From a virus: DNA of 64,000 bases. The notes below the pieces were generated by a model, which was given only the letters and a program-made list of their open reading frames with translations, was not told the origin of the DNA and made no database searches. The stretch covers positions 607-64,606 of IMG/VR virus record IMGVR_UViG_3300009873_000022, one strand, 5' to 3'. A program made the position numbers and the translations under genes. Below, piece after piece: positions 6,248 to 64,000 of this stretch (the first letter of the stretch is position 1; every line of letters begins with the position of its first letter).

Positions 6248-7153
6248 TCATGCCGCCTTCCTTTCAATGAGTACCTGTACCTGCTTGATGGCAGCTTGGG
6301 CCATGCGTTCACTGAGTACATCAGCATTGATGACCACCAGAAGTTCTCCTCGCTCCTCGCATTCCTTGATGTATGGGCTAGTGACATGTGAGTTCGTGTA
6401 CCCCATATGCCCTTGACACACCCTTCCATCGTCATTGCACAGACGTGCCTTGAAGTTGTAGAAGCGATGCCAGCCCATGCAAGACTGCATAGCCAGTCTG
6501 TTCAGGTCAAGCGGCATGCTGCTGGACTTGGCAGTGAATGAGGTATGAACAGTGCTGGTAGTGGTGAAGACCTGATCGGCAGATGCCCCGACAGTTATCT
6601 CCACCGTGTAACCGGACTTCTGCAGCATGTCACACACTTTGTAGGCAGTAGCGGCACGCCAGATACTGGCCATTGCATCCACACTGCCAAGTCCACCGAT
6701 GTTGATGTAGACGTGTGCAGCCTTGCGCCTGACCTGATGCAGGTCACGACGAGTGTTGCTCCATGCCCTGTCAAGGTTGCCCTGATAGACAGCATGTATA
6801 TCAAGGTCACTGCCGTTGTCGGCCCGTACCCTTCTACGCTTGGTAGCTTGAGTGAGCGCTACCGGCAGCGTCTCGGGATTCAACGTGAGATGTGAGGCAG
6901 CGTACTTCACTGCACTCAACAGTTCCGGCCAGCCTTCCTTAACCTTCTGCTCGAACTCCTCGCCAGTGCGCACGGCAGGACCGTACCACTCACGACCACG
7001 AATTGAGGTCATTGGAATGGCAGTGCGCATCCGCGTTTGATTGATATCATTCTTCGGAGCATCCTTGAGAAGATCCTCGAATGAGGGATAGTGGATAACG
7101 TACTCCACTCGATTCGCGTAGGTACGCGACGGATACTTGCGTTCGATCTTCAT
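6248..7153 (-). CDS. hypothetical protein; possible partner of the adjacent AAA ATPase, with a position like CobT/VWA but no clear MIDAS motif
   Basis: 301-aa ORF translationally coupled to 7150..8391. Confidence 0.45.
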   Translation of the reverse strand: MKIERKYPSRTYANRVEYVIHYPSFEDLLKDAPKNDINQTRMRTAIPMTSIRGREWYGPAVRTGEEFEQKVKEGWPELLSAVKYAASHLTLNPETLPVALTQATKRRRVRADNGSDLDIHAVYQGNLDRAWSNTRRDLHQVRRKAAHVYINIGGLGSVDAMASIWRAATAYKVCDMLQKSGYTVEITVGASADQVFTTTSTVHTSFTAKSSSMPLDLNRLAMQSCMGWHRFYNFKARLCNDDGRVCQGHMGYTNSHVTSPYIKECEERGELLVVINADVLSERMAQAAIKQVQVLIERKAA

Positions 7154-8391
7154 GCTGTCACCTCATTCCTTGCGAGCATTGGCATAATGAGCGCCATTTC
7201 CTCAGCACTCCAGTCAGTGAAGTATGCTTGCTGCCAATCACCCTGCTTCCAGTCTGCCTGTTCAGTCATGTCGGCCAGATCCTTGATGGTGCGGGTTGAC
7301 ATGACGCGTCGCAGCGACTTCACGCGGATAGCCTCGCGCACTTTCCAAGCCCATTCAAGTAGCTTAGGATTGCCGATGGACTCCTCCACTTCCTTGCTGT
7401 AGTCCATGGTGATCATGCCAACACGGAACCGGTCGAGCGTGGCTGCGTCCAACTGATTGCGCCCGACATACATGGCATCAGCGCCATGACCATACGTGTT
7501 GGCTGCACCAATGGCCACGAAGTCCGGGTGACGCTTGACCAGTGGATTCTTGTACCGTTGCGGCAGGTAGAAACTGTCGTTGGCCAGTGCCTTGTTCAGG
7601 AAGGTGAGCAGGTTGGCATCTGCCGCATCCATCTCGTCGAACAGGAACACACCTCCATTCTCATACATCTTGATGAATGGCGATTCAACGTACTCGAACT
7701 GCCCAGACTTGCCAACTGGCAGGAGCCATCCAGTGAAAGCCGACTCACTGAGACCAGCAGAGCACGACTGATCGGCGAAGTCAAGCTTGAGGGCCTCGGC
7801 CAGTTTCGCTGCGAGGTACGTCTTGCCGCAGCCTGCGGGACCGACGAGCATGATGTTCTTGCGCGCAGCGCCAAGCTGTACCATGCGAGGGAATTCCTTG
7901 GGAAGGACTCCCTTGACCACTCTCGTCTTGCCCTTCTCTTTGATGACGAATGGCACTGCCTTTTCGGCCGCCTCACGCAGAGCAGTCTTGGCATCTTGCT
8001 TCAGGGTATCCTTGACCTTGTCAAGCGCCTCGAGTAGCCCGCTCATGTTCTTGTTGAACACGACCATGCCGTGCTCGTCGAGCTTGCTGCGACTGGACTC
8101 GATGACCTGCCCTACGATATCGTAGAGTTTCTCTTCCTGCGAGCCGACCACATTCTGAACACCGGTCTTGTGCAGGCAGATGGCGTCGTAGCCGCGCTGC
8201 GCCAGTTCAACATTCGCTTCGCAGATTTCCTTGAGGAACTTGCGTCGCAGCTCTTCAGACTTGAGCGTGGTCAAGCGATGCCTGACGCCCATGTAGTCCG
8301 CAAGCACATAGACCTGCGAATTGTGGAGATCCCCGTAGTTGAGGTCCTTGATGCTGGCCGGAAGGCCGCGTCCTTTCTTTGCAAAGCCCAT
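7150..8391 (-). CDS. MoxR/CobS-like AAA+ ATPase
   Basis: Walker A is LVGPAGCGKTYLAAKL and Walker B is VFLFDEMDAAD. The conserved AGGAGACTATC-ATG start context is present. Confidence 0.8.
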   Translation of the reverse strand: MGFAKKGRGLPASIKDLNYGDLHNSQVYVLADYMGVRHRLTTLKSEELRRKFLKEICEANVELAQRGYDAICLHKTGVQNVVGSQEEKLYDIVGQVIESSRSKLDEHGMVVFNKNMSGLLEALDKVKDTLKQDAKTALREAAEKAVPFVIKEKGKTRVVKGVLPKEFPRMVQLGAARKNIMLVGPAGCGKTYLAAKLAEALKLDFADQSCSAGLSESAFTGWLLPVGKSGQFEYVESPFIKMYENGGVFLFDEMDAADANLLTFLNKALANDSFYLPQRYKNPLVKRHPDFVAIGAANTYGHGADAMYVGRNQLDAATLDRFRVGMITMDYSKEVEESIGNPKLLEWAWKVREAIRVKSLRRVMSTRTIKDLADMTEQADWKQGDWQQAYFTDWSAEEMALIMPMLARNEVTA

Positions 8392-8415: not shown

Positions 8416-8618
8416 TCAGCAACGAATTGAATCAAGCGCGCCTGTCCGTACCTTGTGACAGTCGCCCATGTCTGAAAAGTGGAACTCTACTACCTGCTGA
8501 GCGAGCAGATCGTATGCCTTGAAGGTTTCGTCCTCAAGGTCAAACGAGAGAAAGACAAAACGTGTCATTCTGTAGCCGGGATGCTTGAATAGATCACCGA
8601 TGGTGAATTTCTTCATGA
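8416..8618 (-). CDS. small hypothetical protein (first gene of the leftward operon)
   Basis: The internal start MKKFTIGD is preceded by CACAGGAGATTATC-ATG. The track ORF extends to 8679 without an RBS. Confidence 0.4.
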
Positions 8619-8639
8619 TAATCTCCTGTGAGATGCAGT

Positions 8640-9426
8640 AGCGAAAGACACTCGACATTGAATGCCCTTCGCACTGCACCCTCTGTATATCGAGGGTGAG
8701 TGTGTCCAGGTTTCGGCCCGTCAGGGCGGAGTCTTGCTGGACGATGTAGGTACTCTGCTTGCTTGTGCTGAGGTGTATTCAGCCGTTGACACACTAGGTA
8801 GGCTATCACGAAGACATGGCCATCATAGGTAAGCTGTCACGAAGACATGGCTATCGGGCGTGGACGTTGCGCAAACTTTCTTTCCCGTTGTAGTGCATTA
8901 TTCTAAGACGCTGCACCGACGTATCATCTAGTTGCATAGACTAGTGAACTTGCATGCACTGACCTTTACTCGGGCCGTTCGAGGTGCGCTAACTTGGGTT
9001 GCATGGGATGCGGTGGAACCTTGAACCGCTTTTTCTAGCTACCGTTTTCCCGGCAGCTCCCATTCCCGCGTTACAGGGTGCCACCCTAGCTAGTGCGCTT
9101 TGTCATGCGCCTTTGCCCGCTGCTCTCACCCGGTAGTTGGCTTGCCTTCCTTGGCCTACGTGGTGGCTGGTACGTGCTACCAGCGGCCCTAGTATGGCCT
9201 ACCCGGCAAGCGGGGGCAATATATAAGGTATAAGGCGCGAGGCCCACAGCGAGCCTAAATGCTTTTGGAATTCAACAACTTAGCCGCGCCCTACCCCAAA
9301 ACCGGGTAAATGGGCCGCTACCGGGTGCCGGGTAGCCTGCAACGGGCCAGTTTTGCGCAAGAAATTGGTTACTTTTTAACCATCTAATCTTGGTTACTTT
9401 TTAACCAATCTTTGGTTACTTTTTGT
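8640..9426. promoter_or_regulatory. ORF-free region of about 790 bp, presumed to hold the promoter and regulatory DNA for the leftward early operon and the terminator for the upstream operon; a possible structured ncRNA
   Basis: No ORF of 60 aa or more is present on either strand in this region. It has balanced GC and several inverted repeats, for example GCTACCGG-GTG-CCGGGTAGC near 9312. Confidence 0.5.
8797..8855. repeat. two 28-bp direct repeats (GGTAGGCTATCACGAAGACATGGCCATC and GGTAAGCTGTCACGAAGACATGGCTATC)
   Basis: The repeats are visible in the sequence with period 31 bp and lie upstream of the leftward operon. Confidence 0.7.
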
Positions 9427-9430
9427 TCAA
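9365..9430. repeat. three tandem copies (period 22-25 bp) of TTGGTTACTTTTTAACCA, each a short palindrome
   Basis: The copies are visible in the sequence and sit immediately after the stop of the FkbM-like gene. The third copy is degenerate. Confidence 0.75.
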
Positions 9431-10026
9431 TCACTCACCGGCACATACAGAGCATGTGTCTTGTCGCTATCAACGAGCTCATATCCATGACGCTCGAACC
9501 ACGAATGGAGATCACTGAGTGTCATTGAGTACATCTTTCGAAGAACGGCCGATGATACATCAATCACTATGACGGGCTTGTACTCCTTTATCATCTTCCA
9601 CGCTCCCCTCAGCGTTAGAAGCTCAGTTCCGTCGCCATGAATATGAATTATGTCGCAATGTGCCAACCGAAGCTCATCGAGCTCGATGCCCTCTATATCG
9701 CCGTCATCGTCCAGTACCAGATGAGAGATGCCGGATTTCTTCTCTGTCTTCAGAGAGTACTTCCCAGCCATGTCCATCACTGCCCTGCGCCATAGACATA
9801 CTGTGGTCGCGTAGCTCTTAGGACTCTGCGTCAGCCACAGTGAATAGAGCTTGGTGAATGCTTGGCCATGCTCAAATGAATGAACCTCTCCGAATCTTGA
9901 CCAGAATTCCCTTGACCACTCACCGTCTCCGGCTCCTATGTCAATAGCGCAATCCCTACCCTTCGTTCGATTGAGCGCCTCCTGGAGAATCCTTATCTCG
10001 GACTTTTCCTTTGAAGGGGATGACAT
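9427..10026 (-). CDS. FkbM-family methyltransferase (likely a sugar or hydroxyl O-methyltransferase)
   Basis: The motifs DIGAGDGEWS and CDIIHIHGDGTELLTLRGAWKMI match the FkbM pattern. The start is uncertain because the track ORF 9427..10098 overlaps the primase by 140 nt. Confidence 0.55.
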   Translation of the reverse strand: MSSPSKEKSEIRILQEALNRTKGRDCAIDIGAGDGEWSREFWSRFGEVHSFEHGQAFTKLYSLWLTQSPKSYATTVCLWRRAVMDMAGKYSLKTEKKSGISHLVLDDDGDIEGIELDELRLAHCDIIHIHGDGTELLTLRGAWKMIKEYKPVIVIDVSSAVLRKMYSMTLSDLHSWFERHGYELVDSDKTHALYVPVSD

Positions 10027-12118
10027 TCTGTGGGAGTTCTTGCTTGAAGCGTTTGAGCTTATCAAACCTGCGGAAGTGATCGACCCATTCTGCGTCATTT
10101 TTGGTACTCCATTCGTTTGCGTTCAACACTGCATACAGGGTAAGCGTACTGACATTGAGTCCATTTCGTATCTTCAGCCTTCTGTTCGGTACTCCCAGTC
10201 GCTTGAACACCACTCCCAGCGCATTCGGTGCCAGACTGGTTCTGGGCAATCTATGCTCTTCGACATATCGCGCCATGATCTGAACGATGCTGTCCATCTC
10301 GTACAGTTGAAGGTCAGGCAGCACCCCAGCAACCATAGTGAATGCCTCTGGAGCCTGCTTGAGTTTCGCGGCAAGCTCATCCATCGGATTCCTGCTGATG
10401 GCGATCATCTCATTCTTTGCTCTCGTGACTGGAGCATGCCCGTTGGGATTGAATTCAGTGAGATCGACGTGTTTGAGATGATTCAGTATCTGCGCTGCTC
10501 CATTCTCTTGGTCCAGCCATTTGTTGTATGCCTTGAAGAACTTCGCGCTCAGTGGGGTATCTGGTGCATTCACACTGAACACGCGCCTGTCTTTCTCGCT
10601 GATTGGCAGAGCATCACTGTGATTAGACGTAATGTACAGATTGGCATAGTTGCGCACTGTTCTGCTTGGCTGGTACTTCTCGCTCAGGTTGAGATCTTCA
10701 TTGGTGATGAATGAATTGAGCCGTCCCATGATGGACGCGCGCAGACTCTTCGAATAATTGACGTAGATCTCATCGATGAACACGAACTGACGTTCTGCAA
10801 TCCATCCATTGAACGAGCTTTCAATATCAGCGCCGTCTATGCGCCTGTAATTGTGTGGCCCGTACATCTGCTTGACGGGCTTTTCCACCAATGAGTTCTT
10901 TCCGATGCCGTGTCCGTATGAGTAGATGAATACAGCTTGCGCCAGCTTGGTCCCTACATGCTGCAATGGATAGGCGAACCACTGCATGAGCCACTTCTTT
11001 TCTGCATCGCGCAGATTGGACGTCAGATGATCGAACAACTCAAGCCACAGTACAGGCTCACCTTCTGCGGGCAGCAATTCAGGAGCCTGCCACGTATTCA
11101 CCACCTCAATTCCCTTGCCCTTCGGCCTGAACCTAGACTTCTTGCCCGGCTCATACACGACACCGTCTACGTCAGTTTCTGGCAGTCTACTCCTCATCCA
11201 TATGTCAATGGCAGGGACCATCTTCTTTGGATCTTCAGGTGATGGAACTCGGTATCTAGGACCGTACTCATTCAACAACTGAGCTCGCTCTCTGAATTTC
11301 TTGGCGATGACCGAGAAGTATTGACCCTGCTCCTTGACGAACACGAGCTCTTCATTCAAGGCCGATAGTGCATCTGCTCTACTGTCACTTCGTCGTGGGA
11401 GCTTCTCGAATGCTGCTCTGGCCTCTTTCGCAGACGTGAAGGTCGCCAGGTAATCATCGAGCCCGACCTTGACCTCGCCCTCTGCGCTCTCCAGATACAC
11501 AAAGCTCACGCTCTTGGGAGCAAGCGTGGCCAGTTCTGCGGACAGTTGATTCATGGCCAGACGAACGTGCTCGTTGTAGCTCAAATCACTGTCATAGCAG
11601 ATGTCTATTGCAGTGTGCTTCAGGTCAAACAGATTGAATTCTTCAAGGAGGGTGATCCCTCTCTTCTTAGATTTGAAGTTGAACACTCCGGCCAGTGCCA
11701 CAGTGGGAATTCCAGAAAGACAAGCCTTGATGGCCTTCTTCTCACCTTCTGTGATGCACAGGTACTTGAGCTTGATCTTCCCCGTCTGCTTGTCTATCGG
11801 CCAGTCATACAGCGGCGAGAAGTACAGGTGTGGAGCAGTGTTGGCGCGCTGATTGTACTTGAACGTACTCTTCTTGATATCACCTACCTTCCATCGTCCC
11901 TTCAGTAGTCTCAGTCTTGCGAAGTTGATCGGCTTCTTGTTGTGATCGAAGAATGGAATCTTGTACGCGCACGCTGTTCCGGCCTTCTTGACACCAAGGA
12001 ACTCCGCGATCTCCACGGAATTCATTGTCTTCAACTTCAGCTTCTTGGCGTGCTTCCACGGTATTCCACTTCTACGCAGGTCTGCCTTTAGCAGAGCGAG
12101 CGGTGATGGCGTTTTCAT
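9956..12118 (-). CDS. DNA primase/helicase (N-terminal Toprim-like primase, C-terminal SF3/D5-P4-type helicase)
   Basis: The Toprim-like motif is LCITEGEKKA. The P-loop is YSYGHGIGKNS. The protein is 720 aa. Confidence 0.8.
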   Translation of the reverse strand: MKTPSPLALLKADLRRSGIPWKHAKKLKLKTMNSVEIAEFLGVKKAGTACAYKIPFFDHNKKPINFARLRLLKGRWKVGDIKKSTFKYNQRANTAPHLYFSPLYDWPIDKQTGKIKLKYLCITEGEKKAIKACLSGIPTVALAGVFNFKSKKRGITLLEEFNLFDLKHTAIDICYDSDLSYNEHVRLAMNQLSAELATLAPKSVSFVYLESAEGEVKVGLDDYLATFTSAKEARAAFEKLPRRSDSRADALSALNEELVFVKEQGQYFSVIAKKFRERAQLLNEYGPRYRVPSPEDPKKMVPAIDIWMRSRLPETDVDGVVYEPGKKSRFRPKGKGIEVVNTWQAPELLPAEGEPVLWLELFDHLTSNLRDAEKKWLMQWFAYPLQHVGTKLAQAVFIYSYGHGIGKNSLVEKPVKQMYGPHNYRRIDGADIESSFNGWIAERQFVFIDEIYVNYSKSLRASIMGRLNSFITNEDLNLSEKYQPSRTVRNYANLYITSNHSDALPISEKDRRVFSVNAPDTPLSAKFFKAYNKWLDQENGAAQILNHLKHVDLTEFNPNGHAPVTRAKNEMIAISRNPMDELAAKLKQAPEAFTMVAGVLPDLQLYEMDSIVQIMARYVEEHRLPRTSLAPNALGVVFKRLGVPNRRLKIRNGLNVSTLTLYAVLNANEWSTKNDAEWVDHFRRFDKLKRFKQELPQNVIPFKGKVRDKDSPGGAQSNEG

Positions 12119-13189: not shown

Positions 13190-13477
13190 GTAGTCAGTGT
13201 AGCCAGTCGCATTTTGAGTGACTGACTACGCGAAAAGTGACTAGTTTTGCAGTCTTTTGGTCTACTTTGTAGTCAGTGTAGTCAGTCATTCGACACAGAA
13301 AGTATATATATATCTATTTTATGGAATTATCATGTGCAGTGATATTTCCCAGTTACTTTTTACCCTTTTTGACTGACTACACTGACTACAAAGTGGAGCA
13401 AAGAGCCTAAAAACGAGGCCCGGCGATGTAGTCAGTCAACCAAAAAACGACTGACTACACTGACTACACTGACTACA
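13190..13477. repeat. array of a 9-mer GTAGTCAGT and its reverse complement ACTGACTAC, at least 10 copies including tandem doublets and a triplet, arranged around an AT-rich core (13300-13335)
   Basis: Copies are counted directly at 13190, 13221, 13269, 13278, 13372, 13381, 13427, 13451, 13460 and 13469. The central stretch is AGTATATATATATCTATTTTATGGAATTATC. Confidence 0.8.
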
Positions 13478-45345: not shown

Positions 45346-45651
45346 TCAAGCCAGATGCACTTGACTAAGTTCCAAGCCATTCATGTCTGCGACGATTTGT
45401 CGATATCGAAGTACTTCGGCATCCATCGCACTTACCATAGCCTCCCAGTACTCGACCTCCGTCATGACTCCCTTCTTGATGAGAAGCTGTACCAGTCCTG
45501 AGTGCTGAACCATTGCAGAGTTCACTCCTACTCGAAGATGCTTTGGCTCTTGATCCTTGCTTCTAGGCATGGAGGCCACTCCAGATTGCATGGCGTGACA
45601 CAGTTCGTTGTACCGTTGCATCAGCTGCGATAGCTTCACTACGTCTTCCAT
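45346..45651 (-). CDS. hypothetical protein
   Basis: The start MEDVV overlaps the SPFH stop as ATGA. The track ORF extends to 45723. Confidence 0.4.
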   Translation of the reverse strand: MEDVVKLSQLMQRYNELCHAMQSGVASMPRSKDQEPKHLRVGVNSAMVQHSGLVQLLIKKGVMTEVEYWEAMVSAMDAEVLRYRQIVADMNGLELSQVHLA

Positions 45652-46610
45652 CACTTTACTCCTGTGCTGAAAAATGGGATGGGAAGGCTGGCGTTGTACT
45701 GCTGTGGCAGTTGACCGTTCCACCGCTCAGCCTTGGTCTGCTCAACCTGAATGCGCAGCACTTCGAGCACATCCTTGTTCTGCTGAAGCGCGGCGTTCTG
45801 GATCTTCATGGCATCTGCCTTTGCAGTGGCATTCTTCAAGGTGGCATATGCCTCGCCGTCAGCAGTGGCCCTTACTGCAGACGCCTCTGCTTCTGCAATG
45901 GCAACCTTCTGCTTCTGTTCAGCTTCGACGGTCTTCAGCTTGTTCTCAGCACCGAGGCGAAGCTGCTCTTGTGTCACCTTGTCATTGATGGCGTCCATGT
46001 ACGACTTGCTGAATGCAAAGTTGCGCATATCGATGTTGACTACCTGTGCGCCATACAGGGCCAGCTTCTGCCCTAGCGCAGCATAGATATCTGACGATAC
46101 CGCTGCTCGTTTCGCAATGAGATCAGGTGCAGTGTACTTCGCAGTCACGGCCTTGAAGATTTCCTGTGCGGCTGTTTGCACGTAGCTGGAAAGATCACCG
46201 TCGTGTGAGTACTTCTCATAGACCTCCGCGACCTTGTCTGGGCTGATGGAGTAACGAACTGTCAGACTGACTGTCACTGGCTGCGTGTCAGAGGTTGAGC
46301 CGTTTGCATTCTCAATATCAGCTTGCTCAGCACGAACATTGAACAGCGCAATCTTCTGCCACGGAGGAAGGATAGCCAGCCCTTCCTGTTCAATGCCAAC
46401 GATCTTTCCGAATTGAGTCACTACACCACGACTTCCCGTTGGAACAGAATAAAATGGCCACAGAATACTGATCGCGATGAGTATCGCTATGGTAATCAGT
46501 ACGTCCCTGATGATGGCCGTAAAGTTCACCTCTGTGACTACCCTTGCTGGCCCTCTTCCGAATGCGTCTTCGATTGTCTTTGTCTTGGTGTATCTGTCTT
46601 TGATGCTCAT
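45651..46610 (-). CDS. SPFH/band-7 (prohibitin/HflKC-like) membrane protein
   Basis: An N-terminal TM segment is followed by an SPFH core and a C-terminal A/E-rich coiled coil. Confidence 0.75.
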   Translation of the reverse strand: MSIKDRYTKTKTIEDAFGRGPARVVTEVNFTAIIRDVLITIAILIAISILWPFYSVPTGSRGVVTQFGKIVGIEQEGLAILPPWQKIALFNVRAEQADIENANGSTSDTQPVTVSLTVRYSISPDKVAEVYEKYSHDGDLSSYVQTAAQEIFKAVTAKYTAPDLIAKRAAVSSDIYAALGQKLALYGAQVVNIDMRNFAFSKSYMDAINDKVTQEQLRLGAENKLKTVEAEQKQKVAIAEAEASAVRATADGEAYATLKNATAKADAMKIQNAALQQNKDVLEVLRIQVEQTKAERWNGQLPQQYNASLPIPFFSTGVK

Positions 46611-46617
46611 GCTTCCC

Positions 46618-47259
46618 TCAGAATAGTTTGAACGTTATGAACCCGTTTTTCCAGAATGATGCCGATCCATCTTCTTGTACAGGCGTCTCCGGTACCTCGA
46701 AATCGAAATGATACTCTTTATCTAGTAACCTCCTTGCCTTGGTCAAGCCTCTGTATGCAGTGAGCATGGCCAGCCTCTTGTTATGTAGATCTCGTTTGGC
46801 AACATCATACATGGACAGCAGAGGATGATCAGCATTCTTTTTCTTAGCTGCCTTTTCCAACTTCTTCAGATGTTTTCTGGCTGCCGCATTCGTGTCTAGA
46901 TCGCCCTCAACCCTCTCGATATTCTGCTCTACAATGAGGATCACATGGTTGAGAAAGTCTGCATCCTCGTTCCCCAGAACTTGCCTCAACGCTTCGGTCA
47001 CTATCTGGCGAATGATCAAGTGCGCGTACTCTTCTCTAGATAGGCTTTTCTTTGTTTCTCCTTCTTTGTCATACCGATCCCTCTTTTCTGGGTCACTCAG
47101 TATTTCATAGGCGCGATTGATCTCTGCCATCTTTTCATTCGCGTCACTGCTCTTGTTTCTATCCGGATGATAGTGAGATGACTTTCTTCGGAAGGCTTTT
47201 CGTATCTCATCCTGTGTGGCATTGGGTCTGACGCCCAAGATTTCATACAGACTAGCCAT
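46618..47259 (-). CDS. DnaJ (J-domain) co-chaperone-like protein
   Basis: The J domain is [31 protein letters not shown], with the HPD motif. Confidence 0.75.
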
Positions 47260-49760: not shown

Positions 49761-50085
49761 GCCCGCTACAATCCGGGCAGGCACTCGGGTCACGCGGCTT
49801 GTCAACGTTCATGGCGGCGGACTGCTCCATGTTTTGCCGGATGCGCTCCTGAGTTTCCCTTTCCTCAAGGATCTCAATGTACTTCTGGAGATAGTGCTGT
49901 GCCTTCTTCAGATCCTCGATTCCATTTTTCTTTTTGTGACGGAACACATACTTGGTGATGTTCCCTTGGAAGTAGTCGAGATTGAAGATATTCACTACAT
50001 CCCAGTGTTCAATGCCTCCGGTCTGATAGTGACTACCACCGACTTGAGTTTCGTTTGCCTTACTTGTAGACTGGCCAACCATGAT
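49720..50085 (-). CDS. DUF3310-like protein
   Basis: The motif GGSHYQTGGIEHWDV is present. The internal start MVGQ avoids overlap with the HD gene. Confidence 0.4.
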   Translation of the reverse strand: MMVGQSTSKANETQVGGSHYQTGGIEHWDVVNIFNLDYFQGNITKYVFRHKKKNGIEDLKKAQHYLQKYIEILEERETQERIRQNMEQSAAMNVDKPRDPSACPDCSGLLGAHRAWCPRCY

Positions 50086-50629
50086 AGGTCTCCTGTACCA
50101 AAGCGAGTGAGTAACGGGCCTCGAAGGCCATGCTGAATACCTCATAGAGCCACTTGGTCTGCTCATTGATATCCATGAGTCCACGTTCGCGTATGGCAGT
50201 GAGTCCATTCATGGCAACCGTGGCCATGATTCTGTTTCCACTGTCTACCTCCTCCATTGAGAAGATCACCAGCTCCATGATGTCACAGAATTTAAGTACG
50301 CGCTTCTCAATGCCACTCAGCTCCGTGTGCATACTGAATTCATTCTTGATCCGCTCCTCGACTACGCGAAGCGCTGACTCGAGTTCTGGGTGACGCCACT
50401 TGACCGGAGATGGAACATCACCAGTGATCCCCTCTGGTGCGTCATGGTACAGTGCTGCTCGCCACAGTGCTTTCGATGCGGTCGGTAGCACAATATCAAT
50501 CAATGCCAGTATCCCGAACGTGTGCTCACCAACTGTCTGTTGATGCACAGGAGGAAGAGTGTGAAGCCGCTTTACTCTGGCAACCACTCGCATCAACTTC
50601 AGCCTGTCGAATTCTTGTTTACCGTACAT
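50060..50629 (-). CDS. HD-domain phosphohydrolase (YfbR-like 5'-deoxynucleotidase family)
   Basis: H...HD...D is present as HTFGILALID...YHDAPEGITGD. Confidence 0.7.
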   Translation of the reverse strand: MYGKQEFDRLKLMRVVARVKRLHTLPPVHQQTVGEHTFGILALIDIVLPTASKALWRAALYHDAPEGITGDVPSPVKWRHPELESALRVVEERIKNEFSMHTELSGIEKRVLKFCDIMELVIFSMEEVDSGNRIMATVAMNGLTAIRERGLMDINEQTKWLYEVFSMAFEARYSLALVQETYHGWPVYK

Positions 50630-50630
50630 G

Positions 50631-51665
50631 TCAACCTCCCTTCACAGACATTCTGCGCTGAAGCCATTCAATGCAGGCGATCTTCCAGTCTTCCGCCTTG
50701 CAGTGTGCAGCCAGATGGTTGATTGCCTCTTGGGTTTGTCCGGCCTTGTGCATGTCCCACGCCAGTTGAATGGGGAAGAAGACATCCAGGAAGTACGAAT
50801 CATAGTGCCCACACTGTTCCCTGTGCGCGCCTTCCATCACTTCTAGCAGTTGGAACAACCACTCTTCCCATCTTGTGCCATTGATCAATGGGTACGGCTT
50901 GATGTTCTGTGTGGCGTACCTATCCACGCTCGCCGGGCTGGACCGCACCTTCAACCATGCGTCCTGTTGAGTGTAGACATGAAAGCTGTCGCTCACTTGG
51001 ATGTATGACCCTACCTCTACGCGCAAGGCGCGAGCCACGAATTCTTGAATGGTGCTGAACTGTACTGCGTTCGCTCCGTATGCTCCCCAGATGGCGTCGT
51101 TGCTGCGGCAGCTTACCGTGATGTTCAACCTTCCATCGCGCAACTTGAAGAAGATCAGATCATTGCACGGGATATCCTTCGAATTAGCCCCGAGGTCTGC
51201 AATTGGATCCCAGATGGCCACCACTGCGCGACGAGTATCTGGATCGTCACCAAGAAGTCTGATGACGCGACGGAGCTGATCAATTCCATGGAATGCCCTG
51301 ATTCGAAAGCCGTAAGCTCCGTGGAATGTCTCTCCATTGTCACTGTACTCAGACATCTTCTTGTTATAGCGAGTCAGTGTCGCTACGTCATTGCGCCCAT
51401 CGATGATCCACAGAGCCTCCATGAAATGGAAAAACGGATTCGCGTCTCTTTCTGGCGAAAAGAGCACACGCTCATCCGGTCGCAGGTACTCTGTAATCCA
51501 CAGACCCTTGTACTCCGCTGTCTCCATTCCACGGGGAGATATCACCCTCCAATTCTCCGAGTCTTGAATGGCCTCGACCGCACTGATCCTGAGATTGTTC
51601 AGTGCCTGATTCACATTTCTTACCACGACTGATCTAATCACTTCTTTCTCCTTTTGATTTCCCAC
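50631..51665 (-). CDS. thymidylate synthase-family enzyme (ThyA or dUMP hydroxymethylase; Cys nucleophile retained with His replaced by Asn)
   Basis: The protein aligns by eye to ThyA. LWIIDGRND aligns to LWFLQGDTN. AYGFRIRAF aligns to VYGKQWRAW. DPDTRRAVVAIWDP aligns to DPDSRRIIVSAWN. IPCNDLIFF aligns to APCHAFFQF. RSNDAIWGAYGAN aligns to RSCDVFLGLPFN, and the uracil-specific Asn is kept. Confidence 0.8.
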   Translation of the reverse strand: MGNQKEKEVIRSVVVRNVNQALNNLRISAVEAIQDSENWRVISPRGMETAEYKGLWITEYLRPDERVLFSPERDANPFFHFMEALWIIDGRNDVATLTRYNKKMSEYSDNGETFHGAYGFRIRAFHGIDQLRRVIRLLGDDPDTRRAVVAIWDPIADLGANSKDIPCNDLIFFKLRDGRLNITVSCRSNDAIWGAYGANAVQFSTIQEFVARALRVEVGSYIQVSDSFHVYTQQDAWLKVRSSPASVDRYATQNIKPYPLINGTRWEEWLFQLLEVMEGAHREQCGHYDSYFLDVFFPIQLAWDMHKAGQTQEAINHLAAHCKAEDWKIACIEWLQRRMSVKGG

Positions 51666-52648
51666 GGTCTAAGTACAACTTCTGACAGCGTCCTTATCTT
51701 GGTAGCGCCATCAACGGCCGTTCTATCACTGCCGGTAGGCATTCTCAATTCTTTCTTGCCCTTCTTGTCGGGTAGCAGCCCAACACGGTATGACTTGGCA
51801 TCACACACGTTGCACGGCTTCAACGAAGCTCTGTCACCTTGCATCAAGAATCTTCTTGCCGCCATGAACTCATTACCGTTCCACACGGCATCGAGGCCGT
51901 CCTTCACGATGTTTCCACACTGATATACGCCGCGCCAGTCATTACAGCAGATGGCCACTTCTCCATCCCATCGAATGGATAACTCACGGAATGGCTTCGC
52001 GCATCTGGCCTTCAACGGTTCTTTCAGTCCGGGGGAGCCAGAGCCGCAATGATTGTTCAGTGTCGAGTGTGTCCCGGCCTGCGCTACACTGATATCCTGT
52101 ACGCGAATGAATACTCGCGCCTTGTGCCCGTATCTGTTGTGTGGTGACCAGTCCTTTTCTTGTGGATAGGCATGTACTTCGAACACGTTTGAATCGAACG
52201 ATGAGAATTGTTCTGTGTTCGAAAACAGAATCGGGTCAATCTTGTCCTTGATCTTCACATACTCATAGGCATCGAATGCAAATACATTCAAGCCTGCATC
52301 AAACAGCTCTCTCAATGACTCGAACACTCCGGGTGGACGCAATAGCCCACCACCATTGGATGTCATCATCAACTGTACATTCGGCAGATACCTGCGGAAT
52401 GCCTTGACGATCTTGATGTAGTTAGGGTTCATCGTCGGTTCGCCATGCATTGCGAACTCAATGCGAGGATTCCACCCTGCCTCTGCAATCTGACCAGCGA
52501 TACTCTTGGCAGTAGCCACGGTCATGAACTTGAAATTCTTCTCCTTCTGTGTGCGGATACCCTGTAGCCCACAGAAGTCGCAATAGAGGTTGCAGCCCTC
52601 ACTGAGTTCCACCTGTACGGCGAACGGAGCTTCTTGTCTGTACTTCAT
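51638..52648 (-). CDS. radical SAM enzyme with a SPASM-like C-terminal domain
   Basis: The CxxxCxxC motif is EGCNLYCDFCG. The C-terminus has CCNDWRGVYQCGN...CNVCD. Confidence 0.8.
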   Translation of the reverse strand: MKYRQEAPFAVQVELSEGCNLYCDFCGLQGIRTQKEKNFKFMTVATAKSIAGQIAEAGWNPRIEFAMHGEPTMNPNYIKIVKAFRRYLPNVQLMMTSNGGGLLRPPGVFESLRELFDAGLNVFAFDAYEYVKIKDKIDPILFSNTEQFSSFDSNVFEVHAYPQEKDWSPHNRYGHKARVFIRVQDISVAQAGTHSTLNNHCGSGSPGLKEPLKARCAKPFRELSIRWDGEVAICCNDWRGVYQCGNIVKDGLDAVWNGNEFMAARRFLMQGDRASLKPCNVCDAKSYRVGLLPDKKGKKELRMPTGSDRTAVDGATKIRTLSEVVLRPWEIKRRKK

Positions 52649-53673
52649 TTCAACATCTCCTCTATGTACATCTGACCGACCAGCTTGGGATCGTGCTCTC
52701 TCAGCAGTCTGTACCCATGATGTACGATCTCTCCAATCGAAGACCTGCGCAGTGGCAGTCCATTCAGTATGGCAGACACATTGAACGCCAGTTCACTTGG
52801 CCCATTGACTGGGATTACGTGCCTCCACTTTCGTAGCTCACCATTGTATCGGAACCAGTCGTAGTGCATGATGTTGACACATCCAGCATCCATGGCCTCC
52901 ATCTGCGCGTACTGTGTGCCACCTCCATCATCTGGAAACCATGTCATGTCCACGTTCACCGTAGCTGCCGCAGCCAATCTCACTGGAGCATCAAAAGTCA
53001 TGGGATACTGAAAGGTCTTACCACTCTGCTGAAAGACATCACCGTATTTCGCTTCGAGTTGCTTGGTGTACATGCGAAATTCAGCGCCCAGAAGCTTCAC
53101 CCTGTACTGTGGCTCGAGCATCCTGTTTGCCTCCAGCACGATCCTCGGGCGTTTGACACTGGCAATTCGCGCAATGGATATCGCTTCATTTCTCCTGCGA
53201 ATCTCAGGAAACGGACCAGCACGCATGTATGGATGTGGAATCCACACTGCGTCCTTGTAGAAGTGCCGTATCGTTGGACGGATACAGATGGGCCGCGTTG
53301 CCAGTTTGGTGACCTTTCCCAAATGATCGTAGATCGTGAATTCATTTGGGTCATGAATGACGGTGCGCATACCATCGGCCATCAAGCGCATGATCATATC
53401 TGGAGGAGTGAGGTACTTGGAATTCGCCGGTGATCCCATCACGGTAGGCATGTCTTTGACTATGGTCCTAGCCTCGCTGAATGTGATGTTCCTGTATTTC
53501 ACTCCTTCATACTGTGCAAAGTTTCGTAGCCTCTCTGGCGGTTCGCCACGAGGTTTGACACGAAGTATCACGGGTTCGTGTCCAGCGGCTTCGAACGCTT
53601 TGAACAAGTGCGCAGTGAACGTGGATGTTCCGCCTCCAAGGTACGGGCGAAAGAAGAATATTCCTACTTTCAT
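52645..53673 (-). CDS. GT-B fold glycosyltransferase, possibly DNA-modifying (the N-terminus recalls T4 alpha-glucosyltransferase)
   Basis: MKVGIFFFRPYLGGGTSTF...AAGHEPVILRV is compared with the T4 AGT N-terminus MRICIFMARGLEGCGVTKF...GHEVTLV as recalled from memory. Confidence 0.45.
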   Translation of the reverse strand: MKVGIFFFRPYLGGGTSTFTAHLFKAFEAAGHEPVILRVKPRGEPPERLRNFAQYEGVKYRNITFSEARTIVKDMPTVMGSPANSKYLTPPDMIMRLMADGMRTVIHDPNEFTIYDHLGKVTKLATRPICIRPTIRHFYKDAVWIPHPYMRAGPFPEIRRRNEAISIARIASVKRPRIVLEANRMLEPQYRVKLLGAEFRMYTKQLEAKYGDVFQQSGKTFQYPMTFDAPVRLAAAATVNVDMTWFPDDGGGTQYAQMEAMDAGCVNIMHYDWFRYNGELRKWRHVIPVNGPSELAFNVSAILNGLPLRRSSIGEIVHHGYRLLREHDPKLVGQMYIEEMLK

Positions 53674-53792
53674 CTATGGGCTCCCAGCGATATCGCCTTA
53701 CAATGAACACACTGGTAGACACCACCCTTGAGATGATTGAACTTGAACTCCCATTTGCAGTTAAGGAATAGACACCTGATTGAGTACCTCAT
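53670..53792 (-). CDS. possible 40-aa Zn-ribbon microprotein, translationally coupled (ATGA overlap)
   Basis: The sequence MRYSIRCLFLNCKWEFKFNHLKGGVYQCVHCKAISLGAHR has CxxxxC...CxxC. The longer track ORF 53670..53918 overlaps the upstream gene. Confidence 0.25.
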   Translation of the reverse strand: MRYSIRCLFLNCKWEFKFNHLKGGVYQCVHCKAISLGAHR

Positions 53793-54664
53793 ATGATCCC
53801 TTCCCCTTTCAACTTGCTCACGTTCAATTGCAACTCGAAATTGAAATGCGGCAACTCGTACGGAAAAGCCTTGCGCCAATTGATACGAACATCGGTGCGT
53901 TCTTTCATTCCTTCCCACGATGTAGCACCGATCACTTTCTTTCGAACAACGGTTACGTACTTGGGATGCGCATCACGCAGCATGTGTGCCGCCTTGGCCT
54001 GTGTCTCTTCGTTACGGTAGATACTGCACCCTCCCTTCATATTAGACCCGGTCTGGTTCCAGCAGTAGTCGTAGACACAGGCATTTGGAATTCCACGCTC
54101 AAGAAGCGACAATGTCACGTGAAAGTCCTCCATGACCCTGTACTCATCGAACCTTAGCCCGGTCTTGGCAAACTCTTTGATGTTGAACCCATGAACATTG
54201 TTGATGCGCGTACACCATCTGTAAGGGCTTAGATAGTGTGATGAATCTACACGGCTAGACAACCCTGTCTGCACGATTCCCATGCTGAGTGGCCTGACCA
54301 TCATGTAGAGCATGTGCCTCATGTCAGGTGCAGTGGCCTTCACTAGTTTGATGGCTCTTGGTCTTTCTCTACGGTAGAAGTAGAGGTCGTCATCGAACAT
54401 CAGAGCATACTTGGTAGGGCAATGATCAAGTATCCACTGTCTGGTCTTGCCAATCCCCTTCTTTGATATACCCAAGACCTTGAATAGTGAATTTGGGTGA
54501 TGCTGTCTGTATTCAGATACCTCATCAATTGGCACTACGACCCTGACCTTGCCAGCCTCTGAAAGTTCTACTGGCATGGCATAGAACGTTCGCACATCTG
54601 CGGCCCTACCCCTACTGGGAATGTAGATGGTAGTGTCTTCCATCAACTCTTCGTACGAACTCAT
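53789..54664 (-). CDS. putative GT-A fold glycosyltransferase (DxD-like MFDDDLYFY)
   Basis: The N-terminus IYIPSRGR is Rossmann-like and an acidic DDD motif is present. The protein is 291 aa. Confidence 0.4.
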   Translation of the reverse strand: MSSYEELMEDTTIYIPSRGRAADVRTFYAMPVELSEAGKVRVVVPIDEVSEYRQHHPNSLFKVLGISKKGIGKTRQWILDHCPTKYALMFDDDLYFYRRERPRAIKLVKATAPDMRHMLYMMVRPLSMGIVQTGLSSRVDSSHYLSPYRWCTRINNVHGFNIKEFAKTGLRFDEYRVMEDFHVTLSLLERGIPNACVYDYCWNQTGSNMKGGCSIYRNEETQAKAAHMLRDAHPKYVTVVRKKVIGATSWEGMKERTDVRINWRKAFPYELPHFNFELQLNVSKLKGEGII

Positions 54665-54672
54665 GAGTGCTC

Positions 54673-55662
54673 CTATAATGGTAACTCGTGCTGTAGTGTC
54701 CCCACTCCTGTCGGTGTGAAAAGACTGCGCGGCCTTCCCTCACCATTCTTGACGCGCATGTACTTGTCGAACTCGCAGAGTGAATGTTCAATCTCTCGCA
54801 TCTCGAATGGAAGTTCCGTTCCACGTGCATGTGCTTTGGAGTATACGAACATGTTGAACCAACTCCCCTGTATCAGAAGATCTCGCATGACAGCATTGTA
54901 ATCAATCTTCCTGTACTTCTTGGTCTTTGGACGTTCAGCGCTGCCAGTCAGCAATCGATGAATGCCGCGCTTCGCACCGGGTCCGGGGTTGGCCCATGAC
55001 TCACTGTCAATGTTCTTGGCAAGGACCCTAGTGTACCTTAGATCACACGCTATCTCATATGCAACGAATGGCCCAATGGTATAGATCTCGCTCAGTGCCT
55101 CGACTGCCTTTTCCATTGAGCGATGATTCGCTATCTGCGCCGCCAGTTCATCGCGCTTTTCAAAGAGTTCCTGTAGTGCCTCACATATGACAACGATCTT
55201 TGACTCCTTTCGCCCGCCAGATGTAACGATGTACGCGCCAGTGAATATCTGCTTTCCCTCTGCTTTTCGTTTCTCCAGAATCTTGATGGCACGATCTTTG
55301 ACCCACAGGTTCTTCGACCACTTTCCCTTGGTGAGTTCGCTACGTGGTAGCCCAAAGAACAGAGCATCGTAGGTCTCTGGCCAATTGAACAGTCGAAACA
55401 TGGCACAGTGGAAGATGATATCACCATCGGTCATTTCCTTACCGCGACCGAGAAGACGTACGAACCGGTCTACCCAAGCGAGTGTCACACGGTCAAGTTG
55501 CCTGAATACATTGGTGAACTTGTATTTGGACAGTATCTTGTCCTTAGTGTATGGTGGGGACCTCTTCTCTACGAATCTGCGTAGATAGATTGAATGACGC
55601 TCATTGATGAAATACCAGAATGTCTTCAATTGAGTTTTCCGGTACGCAATCTTATCGGCCAT
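54673..55662 (-). CDS. hypothetical protein in the DNA-modification-like cluster
   Basis: 329-aa ORF with no recognisable motif by eye. Confidence 0.45.
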   Translation of the reverse strand: MADKIAYRKTQLKTFWYFINERHSIYLRRFVEKRSPPYTKDKILSKYKFTNVFRQLDRVTLAWVDRFVRLLGRGKEMTDGDIIFHCAMFRLFNWPETYDALFFGLPRSELTKGKWSKNLWVKDRAIKILEKRKAEGKQIFTGAYIVTSGGRKESKIVVICEALQELFEKRDELAAQIANHRSMEKAVEALSEIYTIGPFVAYEIACDLRYTRVLAKNIDSESWANPGPGAKRGIHRLLTGSAERPKTKKYRKIDYNAVMRDLLIQGSWFNMFVYSKAHARGTELPFEMREIEHSLCEFDKYMRVKNGEGRPRSLFTPTGVGTLQHELPL

Positions 55663-63508: not shown

Positions 63509-64000
63509 TTACTTCTTGCCCTTCTTGGCAAACCGCGACTTCGCCGGGGCCTTCTTGGCTGGCTTCTTTGCCGGGGCCTTCTTGGCTGGCTTCTTTGCCG
63601 GGGCTTTCTTGGCTGCACCCTTCTTGCCCTTCTTCACGGGCTTCTCATCCTCATCGTCCTCATCCTCGTCGTCCTCATCCTCATCCTCATCATCCTCGTC
63701 GTCCTCATCCTCATCGTCCTCATCGTCCTCATCGTCCTCATCGTCCTCATCGTCCTCGTCCTCGTCCTCGTCCTCATCGTCCTCATCGTCCTCGTCCTCG
63801 TCCTCGTCCTCATCCTTCTTGCTCTTCTTGCCCTTCTTCACGGGCTTCTCATCCTCATCGTCCTCGTCCTCGTCGTCCTCGTCCTCATCCTCATCCTCAT
63901 CCTCATCCTCGTCTTCGTCTTCGTCTTCGTCTTCGTCTTCGTCTTCGTCTTCGTCTTCGTCTTCGTCTTCGTCTTCGTCTTCGTCTTCGTCTTCGTCTTC
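63509..64000 (-). CDS. poly-acidic (Glu/Asp repeat) protein with a C-terminal H1/AlgP-like AKKPAKK tail; 5'-partial, open through the window end
   Basis: Read on the minus strand from the window end, the sequence is (ED)n...EKPVKKGKKSKK-(D/E)n-EKPVKKGKKGAAKKAPAKKPAKKAPAKKPAKKAPAKSRFAKKGKK*. The track start at 63841 is a GTG inside a longer open frame. Confidence 0.55.
   Translation of the reverse strand, partial: EDEDEDEDEDEDEDEDEDEDEDEDEDEDEDEDEDEDEDEDEDDEDEDDEDEKPVKKGKKSKKDEDEDEDEDDEDDEDEDEDEDDEDDEDDEDDEDDEDEDDEDDEDEDEDDEDEDDEDEKPVKKGKKGAAKKAPAKKPAKKAPAKKPAKKAPAKSRFAKKGKK
63906..64000. repeat. perfect hexanucleotide tandem repeat (GTCTTC)n of about 15 units, running to the window edge, encoding (Asp-Glu)n on the minus strand
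   Basis: The repeat is visible in the sequence. Confidence 0.9.

Follow-up and report, generated by a model that had tools for sequence, protein, structure and literature searches.

The window, that is, the 64,000 nucleotides of the IMG/VR virus record IMGVR_UViG_3300009873_000022 that we analyzed, contains an interval at 8617-9430 that lies between two minus-strand genes; because both of these neighbors are encoded on the minus strand, we read the interval (the element) on that strand as well. The features of the element and its neighbors are collected in Table 1 in the order in which they are read. An earlier note on this DNA described the interval as devoid of ORFs of at least 60 aa. Strictly, it is not, that is, a mechanical 71-aa ORF with a GTG start (8594-8809, minus strand) and an extended frame of the downstream gene both enter it; neither survives comparison with the closest relative of the element (contig L032, see below), where indels of 1, 3, 5, 8, 12, and 5 nt intervene.

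Table 1. Coordinates in the window of the element, its parts, and the flanking genes.
Feature	Position	Strand	Description
Upstream gene	9427-10098	minus	Weak methyltransferase match (Pfam Methyltransf_23, E=0.0012, below cutoff)
Three tandem 18-bp sites, TTGGTTACTTTTT(AACCA)	9365, 9390, 9412 (9365-9429)	.	Third site degenerate
Conserved spacer	9283-9364	minus	Nearly identical in L032
IHF-type core ATTCAAcaacTTA and A/T tract	9254-9282	plus	Core 9270-9282, tract 9254-9266
AT island CCTTATACCTTATATATTG	9217-9235	minus	Putative -10 TATATT (9223-9218), poor -35 TGGGCC (9246-9241)
Body, ~600 nt	8617-9216	minus	U-poor (18% T, sense), GCAA- and CTAG-enriched, many predicted hairpins
119-nt invariant block	8783-8901	minus	Holds both direct repeats (8795-8855)
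3' module	8629-8704	minus	Hairpin 1 and compound hairpin 2, conserved loop UUCAAUGUCGAG
Hairpin 1, CACCCTC/GAGGGTG	8698-8677	minus	Part of the 3' module
Hairpin 2	Outer helix 8678-8674 with 8638-8634; inner stem 8671-8663 with 8650-8642	minus	
Shine-Dalgarno AGGAG and ATG of the 66-aa gene	8614-8628	minus	Directly after the 3' module
Downstream gene, 66-aa ORF	8416-8616	minus	Good Shine-Dalgarno sequence

The AAA ATPase encoded next to the element has one close homologue (82% aa identity), on Logan contig L032; this contig is the only close relative that we found and the only one in which the element is recognizable by plain sequence. Using blastn, positions 8614-9432 of the window are 85.6% identical to L032 over 846 nt, compared with 73-76% for the adjacent coding DNA. 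The differences are unevenly distributed. None falls in the three 18-bp sites, whereas the intervening spacers have diverged; both direct repeats lie in a 119-nt stretch that is 100% identical (invariant columns 550-668 of the alignment); the central part (~9085-9215) varies and has indels of 1, 3, 5, and 8 nt; and close to the 3' end there are others of 12, 5, and 1 nt. The body also contains compensatory changes, e.g., in CTGGTA..TACCAG and CTAGT..ACTAG. The earlier note had named an assembly artefact as an outcome that would overturn its reading; the independent assembly of the same region in a second sample, at the 85.6% identity given above, argues against this. TAA, TAG, and TGA each occur in all six frames of the interval, and the substitutions that separate it from L032 lack three-base periodicity as judged by eye. 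Because every kind of stop codon is found in every frame and the indels are not confined to multiples of three, we exclude both coding and recoding. From this comparison we conclude that the interval is functional and non-coding, not junk.

The covariance-model search that the earlier note had proposed came back empty: with the Rfam 15 models at their gathering thresholds, no family matches the window or seven related loci, and the unmatched families include GOLLD, ROOL, OLE, group I/II introns, RNase P, tmRNA, and 6S. When E-values up to 10 are allowed, the only matches are to Mu-gpT-DE (17.6 bits, threshold 49) and isrG (10.6 bits, threshold 100); we rejected the weak Mu-gpT-DE match because its stem is not kept in L032. 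ARAGORN identified no tRNA or tmRNA genes in the window. Neither blastn nor megablast found a match for the elements of the window, L045, and L001 among 50,697 cultured-phage records, and the isolate with the closest primase, Stenotrophomonas phage AXL3 (29% identity), lacks a gap of this kind. A literature search located no prior description. The element is a previously undescribed non-coding module of a clade of uncultivated phages, in which DNA sites are followed by a region of ~600 nt.

A family of elements downstream of a primase-helicase

We found relatives of the element by way of homologues of the 720-aa DUF3854-DUF5906 primase-helicase. Gene-free gaps on the gene strand and downstream of the primase were seen first in L038, L039, L119, L121, and L122; nhmmer searches from L038 and L039 then linked L040, L043, L045, L074, L001/L044, L046, L076, and L042, and the same layout and orientation downstream of a homologous primase-helicase also occur in L119/L120, L121, and L122. 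As used here, the family consists of the element of the window and fourteen further ones, in L032, L038-L040, L042, L043, L045, L046, L001, L074, L076, L119, L121, and L122. Of the ten IMG/VR loci whose primases are closest, eight have an element, and the elements of the family are located in the replication-gene block of uncultivated phages.

The shared layout runs from palindromes to an IHF-type box, an AT island, the body, and hairpins that precede the next gene. The body is ~400-700 nt long and contains 12-19% T; GGA is depleted in most members. When the tetranucleotide GCAA was counted in 13 elements, 10 of them showed a 2-5 fold enrichment (only 1.1-1.9 fold in L076, L119, L122, and L039); in the body of the window element we counted eight GCAA (3.4 expected) and seven CTAG (2.3 expected). 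Stable hairpins directly precede the Shine-Dalgarno sequence and ATG of the next gene, which differs between members. A role as a CsrA/Rsm sponge was considered and rejected, GGA being under-represented.

The window element shares the general traits of the family: it lies on the strand of its flanking genes, downstream of a DUF3854-DUF5906 primase-helicase, falls in the size range of 0.4-0.85 kb, and is U-poor. A more specific tie is provided by R1, a covariance model of the 3' module that was trained on L040, L043, and L045 only. Searched against both strands of the whole window, R1 gives one significant match (8629-8704, minus strand; 18.2 bits, E=0.006, full length), and this match falls where the layout predicts; in 1.4 Mb of other loci, the only match outside the training set is at the orthologous place in L032. 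The corresponding type of 3' end, a compound hairpin with the loop UUCA..GAG, is common only to the window, L032, L040, L043, and L045. The 5' start that most relatives share (GGAGACCGGG-hairpin-ACAGCCGGG) is absent from the window and L032; a pattern scan for it recovered only the already-found contigs among viral contigs and 120 chance-level matches, across all phyla, among genome contigs, which gave no clue to the host. A control-region HMM that was trained without the window did not match the window. The 3' module, synteny, palindrome type, composition, and length lead us to conclude that the window and L032 represent a diverged subtype of the family.

Upstream sites and the putative promoter

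The earlier note had reported three tandem palindromes next to the upstream gene. Two are exact copies of TTGGTTACTTTTTAACCA (9365-9382 and 9390-9407); the third (TTGGTTACTTTTTGTTCA, 9412-9429) stands as a copy, with 15 of 18 positions identical, and fails as a palindrome, and it overlaps the stop codon of the upstream gene. The start-to-start spacings to the next copy are 25 and 22 bp, and shuffles of the window gave zero matches to TTGGTTACTTTTTAACCA. We also considered and rejected intrinsic terminators: the stem TGGTTA/TAACCA contains only two G-C pairs, a T tract is lacking on both strands, and the terminator scan made no call at the three sites. The related motif that had been noted at 13350 is a single 10/11 match to an 11-mer at 13351, where ~0.4 matches are expected, that is, it is at chance level. 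A textbook iteron cluster around an AT tract, which is a better candidate for an origin, is found at 13190-13476.

Tandem palindromes, two or three in number and with an A5/T5 center, occur in five members of the family (the window, L032, L040, L043, and L045). The window and L032 have TGGTTA-AAAAG-TAACCA and the other three have TGCTCA-CTTTT-TGAGCA at the same place; L043 carries, in addition, a hybrid site (TGCTCAAAAAGTAGCCA). The consensus for Fis is a 15-bp core, GnnYAnnnnnTRnnC, with an A/T-rich center (PMC10380432), and the cores of the window sites (GGTTACTTTTTAACC twice and GGTTACTTTTTGTTC in the third copy) agree with it at all six defined positions; the same holds for L040 and L045, which have GCTCACTTTTTGAGC, and for the hybrid of L043, GCTCAAAAAGTAGCC. 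This consensus is degenerate (~1 match per 1,000 positions), and the strict conservation of all 18 bp suggests a binder that is more specific than Fis. The sites may be read by Fis or another nucleoid protein of the host; given the conservation across the full 18 bp, a specific HTH protein is also possible.

Exact copies of the 18-mer occur on 28 IMG/VR contigs, where the surrounding sequences represent about a dozen unrelated contexts, and in several phage contigs it is located just after terminator hairpins. In contig L017, which has no protein in common with the window, three exact copies within 100 bp lie directly upstream of a TTGACA promoter, and the gene downstream of this promoter is primase-polymerase-like as judged by eye. 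On the simplest reading, the 18-mers would be the upstream sites of a widely shared DNA-binding protein and would mark the start of a transcription unit.

The spacer that follows the sites includes a palindrome (TTGCGCAA, 9353-9360) and two GC-rich hairpins or CCGGGTAG-type repeats (e.g., 9317-9336); in the repeat scan, these repeats constitute families D3-D5, I2, and I4, and CTTGCGCAAAA also occurs in L039. The IHF-type core (ATTCAAcaacTTA) agrees with eight of the nine defined positions of WATCAAnnnnTTR, a pattern that the window contains at the frequency expected by chance (one found, 0.86 expected). In the family, the sense-strand box TAAGT-N2-3-TTG(A/T)(A/T), the complement of which is the IHF core WATCAAnnnnTTR, occupies an equivalent position in 11 of the 13 elements shown, with a diverged form in the other two (L074 and L046); the core is perfect in L076, L119, and L121, and an A/T tract follows it.

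The AT island is located 45-65 bp past the IHF-type box and, in most members, is the -10 element of a good sigma-70 promoter. Its position in the window corresponds to that of TTGCAC/TTGCAA-N17-19-TATAAT in L040, L045, L043, L001, and L046 (e.g., TTGCAC-N18-TATAAT in L040 and TTGCAA-N18-TATAAT in L045 and L001) and of TTGCAC-N17-TATTAT in L074 and L076. The sigma-70 scan of the window did not call the AT island, and the window and L032 have no convincing -35 element. We infer a transcription start near 9211; alternatively, transcription of the upstream genes could read through and supply the RNA. A promoter that the scan called inside the body (8927-8900) was rejected, as it is not kept in L032 and such calls are expected by chance (one found, 1.5 expected). 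The promoter cluster with operators that had been suggested for this region finds support in a modified form: the three tandem sites lie upstream of the IHF-type core and the AT island, and they look like the sites of an upstream activator or architectural protein and not like operators that overlap a promoter.

Folding and repeats of the body

The several stem-loops mentioned in the earlier note hold up partially, in that the folding of the single sequence is only moderately better than that of shuffles: z is -3.56 for the minus strand of 8617-9216, and for 8860-9365 it is about -2.5 whichever strand is folded. We computed consensus-fold z-scores for four independent pairs of elements, each against column-shuffled alignments, and obtained sense and antisense values of -4.85 and -2.84 for the window and L032, -8.30 and -6.03 for L040 and L045, -5.81 and -0.64 for L001 and L046, and -6.51 and -3.63 for L038 and L039; that is, the consensus fold is stronger on the sense strand in four of four pairs. 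The same strand is favored by wobble pairs: among hairpins that are 8 bp or longer and contain a single non-Watson-Crick position, the sense strand has 12 G.T and 5 A.C (p=0.007), an excess that runs counter to the composition, which favors A.C.

Helices that covary are found in the 3' module. For the inner stem of hairpin 2, compared across five sequences, 45 of 45 cells are paired and three pairs are changed on both sides; the covariation score of this stem is 0.556, compared with 0.281 in shuffles (0 of 500 reach 0.556) and values of at most 0.27 with slid partners. The window has TGCAG/CTGCA as the outer helix, where L032 has TGATG/CATCA (two double changes), and the stem of hairpin 1 is CACCCTC/GAGGGTG in the window, CACCAC/GTGGTG in L032, GCGTCGC/GCGACGC in L045, and GCCCGGTT/AACCGGGC in L043; thus, for both hairpin 1 and the outer helix, compensatory differences are found even between the window and L032. 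Elsewhere in the family of elements, stems vary around fixed loops, e.g., AGGUAACAG and CAAGAGUAACA. These covarying helices are local. When the single-sequence MFE fold of one element is imposed on its partner, most changed pairs break (e.g., 9 kept and 29 broken), and only the count of double changes exceeds that of slid controls; because this test gave a weak result, we do not claim a global fold. Alignment of the 5' domains of nine members with MAFFT for RNAalifold failed, and no intrinsic terminator is found at the end of the element.

The paired direct repeats that had been described as 28 bp in length are real and are 30 nt each (8795-8824 and 8826-8855); 27 of 30 positions are identical, the period is 31, and 1 nt separates the copies. 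Their 19-nt core has two matches in the window (0.01 expected), both in the repeats, and a pattern scan for the doubled core found zero matches in viral contigs and two unrelated chance matches in metagenome contigs. Each repeat contains a mini-hairpin (UGUC-UUCGU-GACA or GAUA), and in L043 two repeats of 27 nt lie about as far from the 3' end. The invariant block that includes the repeats is not unusually structured (z=+0.59), so the constraint on these 119 nt is on sequence and not on pairing. The invariant 31-nt repeats most likely serve as tandem sites that a sequence-specific partner, either a protein or a pairing nucleic acid, recognizes, and not as structural elements. They are neither a CRISPR array nor solitary CRISPR repeats, as the 30-nt copies are separated by 1 nt, with no spacers and no third copy.

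Interpretation and likeness to known systems

A structured ncRNA, one of three options that the earlier note offered, is the best supported of them: the element is conserved above its coding flanks, its hairpins covary, its consensus fold is biased to the sense strand, and it recurs in ~15 elements. The reading that we favor, which we place narrowly on the probable side, is that the interval is a conserved non-coding module with two parts, a DNA control region and a transcribed body that acts as a folded RNA. The control region (~200 bp) would proceed from the three Fis-consensus sites to the IHF-type bend site and the short AT island; nucleoid proteins would assemble on it to form an enhancer-like promoter, by which a transcription unit in the early/replication block would be started or boosted. 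The body (~600 nt) would be transcribed on the minus, that is, gene-sense, strand and would function as an RNA that is U-poor and rich in GNRA-type GCAA, has many hairpins, including the conserved compound hairpin before the next ribosome-binding site, and runs into the next genes; that the ~600-nt region acts as a folded RNA is most likely. An RNA so poor in U and so densely structured would be expected to resist RNase E and Rho. One candidate role is a stable leader that resists both and so protects or regulates the downstream message; alternatively, the product may be a processed stable RNA. A bolder proposal, which we regard as possible but less likely than not, is that the element represents a new class of ~600-nt structured phage RNA with an enhancer-like control region of the IHF/Fis type that is co-inherited with a P4-alpha-like primase-helicase and acts in replication, either as a primer or organizer RNA or by providing a ribonucleoprotein scaffold, to which a phage factor would bind by way of the invariant repeats.

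The same features could instead describe a secondary or transcription-primed origin of replication. The 18-bp sites and GTTGCA-type repeats would then be iterons for the primase-helicase, the AT island would be the unwinding element, IHF and Fis would be accessory, and the hybrid formed by a long U-poor transcript would prime the PolA-type polymerase of the phage, as RNA II does in ColE1. Co-inheritance with the primase-helicase, always within the replication block, is consistent with this, as are the proximity of the three 18-bp sites to the primase-helicase gene and the gene content of the phage, which encodes PolA, ligase, and primase-helicase and has no classical initiator among the proteins scanned. 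IHF and Fis sites are typical of origins (PMC10380432). The 18-mers in L017 also adjoin an AT-rich tract and other repeats, upstream of the gene judged by eye to be primase-polymerase-like. A U-poor RNA would, moreover, form a stable RNA-DNA hybrid. Nevertheless, we consider an origin unlikely, and the second origin that had been suggested for this region is less likely than a structured RNA: a more typical signature, with 11 copies of ACTGACTAC in both orientations around TATATATATATCTATTTTATGG, is located at 13190-13476; the AT island is only ~15 bp and the body has 52-60% GC; and the orientation of the element is fixed, with its end abutting the ribosome-binding site of the next gene. The bias of structure and wobble pairs to one strand and the presence of stems with conserved loops also point more to a folded RNA than to sites in duplex DNA.

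This strand bias bears as well on a reading in which the entire interval is a regulatory region at the level of DNA, that is, protein sites and promoters for middle or delayed-early genes, with a functionless transcript and hairpins that are incidental or are palindromes for binding proteins. Such a region would explain why the control region is the best conserved part across subfamilies and why the three sites and the invariant direct repeats, which are located in an unstructured block, resemble protein sites. It would not explain why a body of ~600 nt with similar length and composition is kept in about 15 diverged elements, why stems covary while loops are fixed, or why consensus folding and G.T pairs favor one strand, which DNA palindromes would not; we judge it quite improbable. 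Hidden coding, either by small ORFs or with a recoded stop codon, could appeal to the mechanical ORFs of 25-71 aa and to the richness of the interval in CTAG/TAG; given the stop codons in every frame, the frame-shifting indels, and the unperiodic substitutions, we give it almost no credence, and the same applies to an assembly artefact given the independently assembled relative.

Structured RNAs longer than ~500 nt are rare, and OLE, GOLLD, and ROOL each opened questions about RNA-only or RNA-protein machines. The element described here has clear boundaries, a recognizable control region, ~15 diverged copies, and a fixed genomic partner in the primase-helicase, so it is directly testable. The tandem palindromes may be a regulatory word that is common to unrelated phages; if they are read by a host nucleoid protein, the timing of phage gene expression would be linked to the growth state of the host.

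The element shares with the RNA II/origin region of ColE1 a structured transcript of ~550-600 nt from a promoter of the sigma-70 type (both predicted here) and a genome with a PolA-type polymerase; however, we identified neither a promoter for an antisense RNA I nor an RNase H site nor G/C stretches of the hybrid-forming kind in the element, and a better origin candidate is found elsewhere in the window. Origins of the iteron type in plasmids and phages combine tandem direct repeats, an IHF site (putative in the element), and an AT patch near a replication gene. As their hallmarks we took three or more iterons of ~17-22 bp, tens of bp of AT-rich sequence for unwinding, and an initiator gene close by; the element differs in having only two or three repeats, a very short AT patch, and a GC-rich body with strand-biased, RNA-like covariation.

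The control region is reminiscent of rrnB P1, which has three upstream Fis sites at -71, -102, and -143 and yields a stable RNA as the rrn product, and of Mu Pe, an IHF-activated promoter: as deduced from the DNA, two or three Fis-consensus sites lie upstream and an IHF-type core lies between them and the putative promoter. The sites are farther from the inferred start than those of rrnB P1, being centered at about -160 to -210 in the window and at -114 to -186 in the elements of L040 and L045; conservation extends over all 18 bp, which is more than Fis would require. Long phage leaders that are processed or antiterminating are known from lambda (nut), HK022 (put), and P4 (the immunity leader that yields CI RNA). 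The element resembles these in being a putative untranslated structured leader in an early operon, in its association with a P4-alpha-like primase-helicase, and in its tandem repeats that contain hairpins; it is, however, many times longer than nut and put, has no match to boxA/boxB, and has no Rfam match of the C4/CI type.

A likeness in kind is to the 'ornate' large RNAs GOLLD, ROOL, and OLE (PMC12286853), which are also hundreds of nucleotides in length and phage-borne, have many GNRA-rich hairpins and no associated function, and are conserved in architecture more than in sequence. The element matches no Rfam model and is not next to tRNA genes; instead, it is located in a replication block, has its own control region of the IHF/Fis type, and runs into the next gene. 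It resembles the large ornate RNAs in kind and differs from them in its context and its control region.

An iteron-like cluster between the early and structural genes

The divergent gap that separates the minus-strand early genes from the plus-strand structural genes contains 11 copies of the 9-mer ACTGACTAC/GTAGTCAGT (10 exact and one with a single mismatch), in both orientations, with copies flanking an AT-rich tract, TATATATATATCTATTTTATGG. When one mismatch or fewer is allowed, the whole window contains 34 matches to the 9-mer, compared with 12.3 expected. The arrangement follows the textbook layout of iterons with an unwinding element, and it is the most probable candidate for an origin or early control region.

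Features of the window
Feature	Position	Strand	Annotation
AAA_5 (MoxR/CobS-like) ATPase, then DUF7192 protein	6248-8391	minus	directly downstream of the non-coding element
Iteron-like 9-mer cluster	13190-13476		
AT-rich tract	~13305-13330		
SPFH/Band-7 and DnaJ-domain proteins, side by side	45651-47259	minus	
Thymidine-hypermodification gene cluster	50060-55662	minus	
5-hmdU DNA kinase	in 50060-55662	minus	PF18723, E=3e-61
TET-associated-glycosyltransferase-like protein	in 50060-55662	minus	
Radical SAM/SPASM enzyme	in 50060-55662	minus	
Thymidylate-synthase-like protein	in 50060-55662	minus	
YfbR-like HD 5'-deoxynucleotidase	in 50060-55662	minus	
Coding region almost without T	63520-64000	minus	ORF incomplete, runs past window end

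Motifs of the non-coding element and its surroundings

The CTAG tetranucleotide is usually avoided in bacteria and phages; among the 13 elements in which it was counted, a set made up of the window's own (8640-9430) and its relatives, seven show an approximately 3-fold enrichment. The window's own element has seven occurrences where 2.3 are expected (the whole-window density is 1.9 per kb). The ATPase-DUF7192 gene pair is kept in most of the related contigs, and its metagenomic homologues number in the thousands.

The 18-mer of the element's tandem sites also occurs in an unrelated phage contig, IMGVR_UViG_3300033143_001227 (L017), that has no protein in common with the window at E<1e-3. Positions 631-730 of this contig hold three exact copies; a long TA-rich tract and several inverted repeats of GTTGAACTTC accompany them. 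Downstream of all these features come a TTGACA promoter and a gene judged by eye to be primase-polymerase-like. Nine further IMG/VR contigs (L005, L008, L013, L014, L018, L019, L025, L027, and L031) form a group in which the 18-mer is found approximately 25 nt from GGTTCGATTTCC, a sequence on the opposite strand that by its appearance may be the 3' portion of a tRNA gene.

Probable base modification and other coding regions

With a thymidine-hypermodification gene cluster in the window, the phage DNA probably carries a hypermodified base in place of T; such a replacement, if true, would affect any protein that reads the A/T-rich sites described here.

Elsewhere in the window, the pairing of SPFH/Band-7 and DnaJ-domain genes is unusual in a phage. 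The product of the coding region almost without T contains long Glu/Asp repeats, coded by GAAGAC and GAGGAT units, that are both interrupted and followed by Lys-rich tails of the KKPAKKAP type; these tails are like a histone-H1-like tail.
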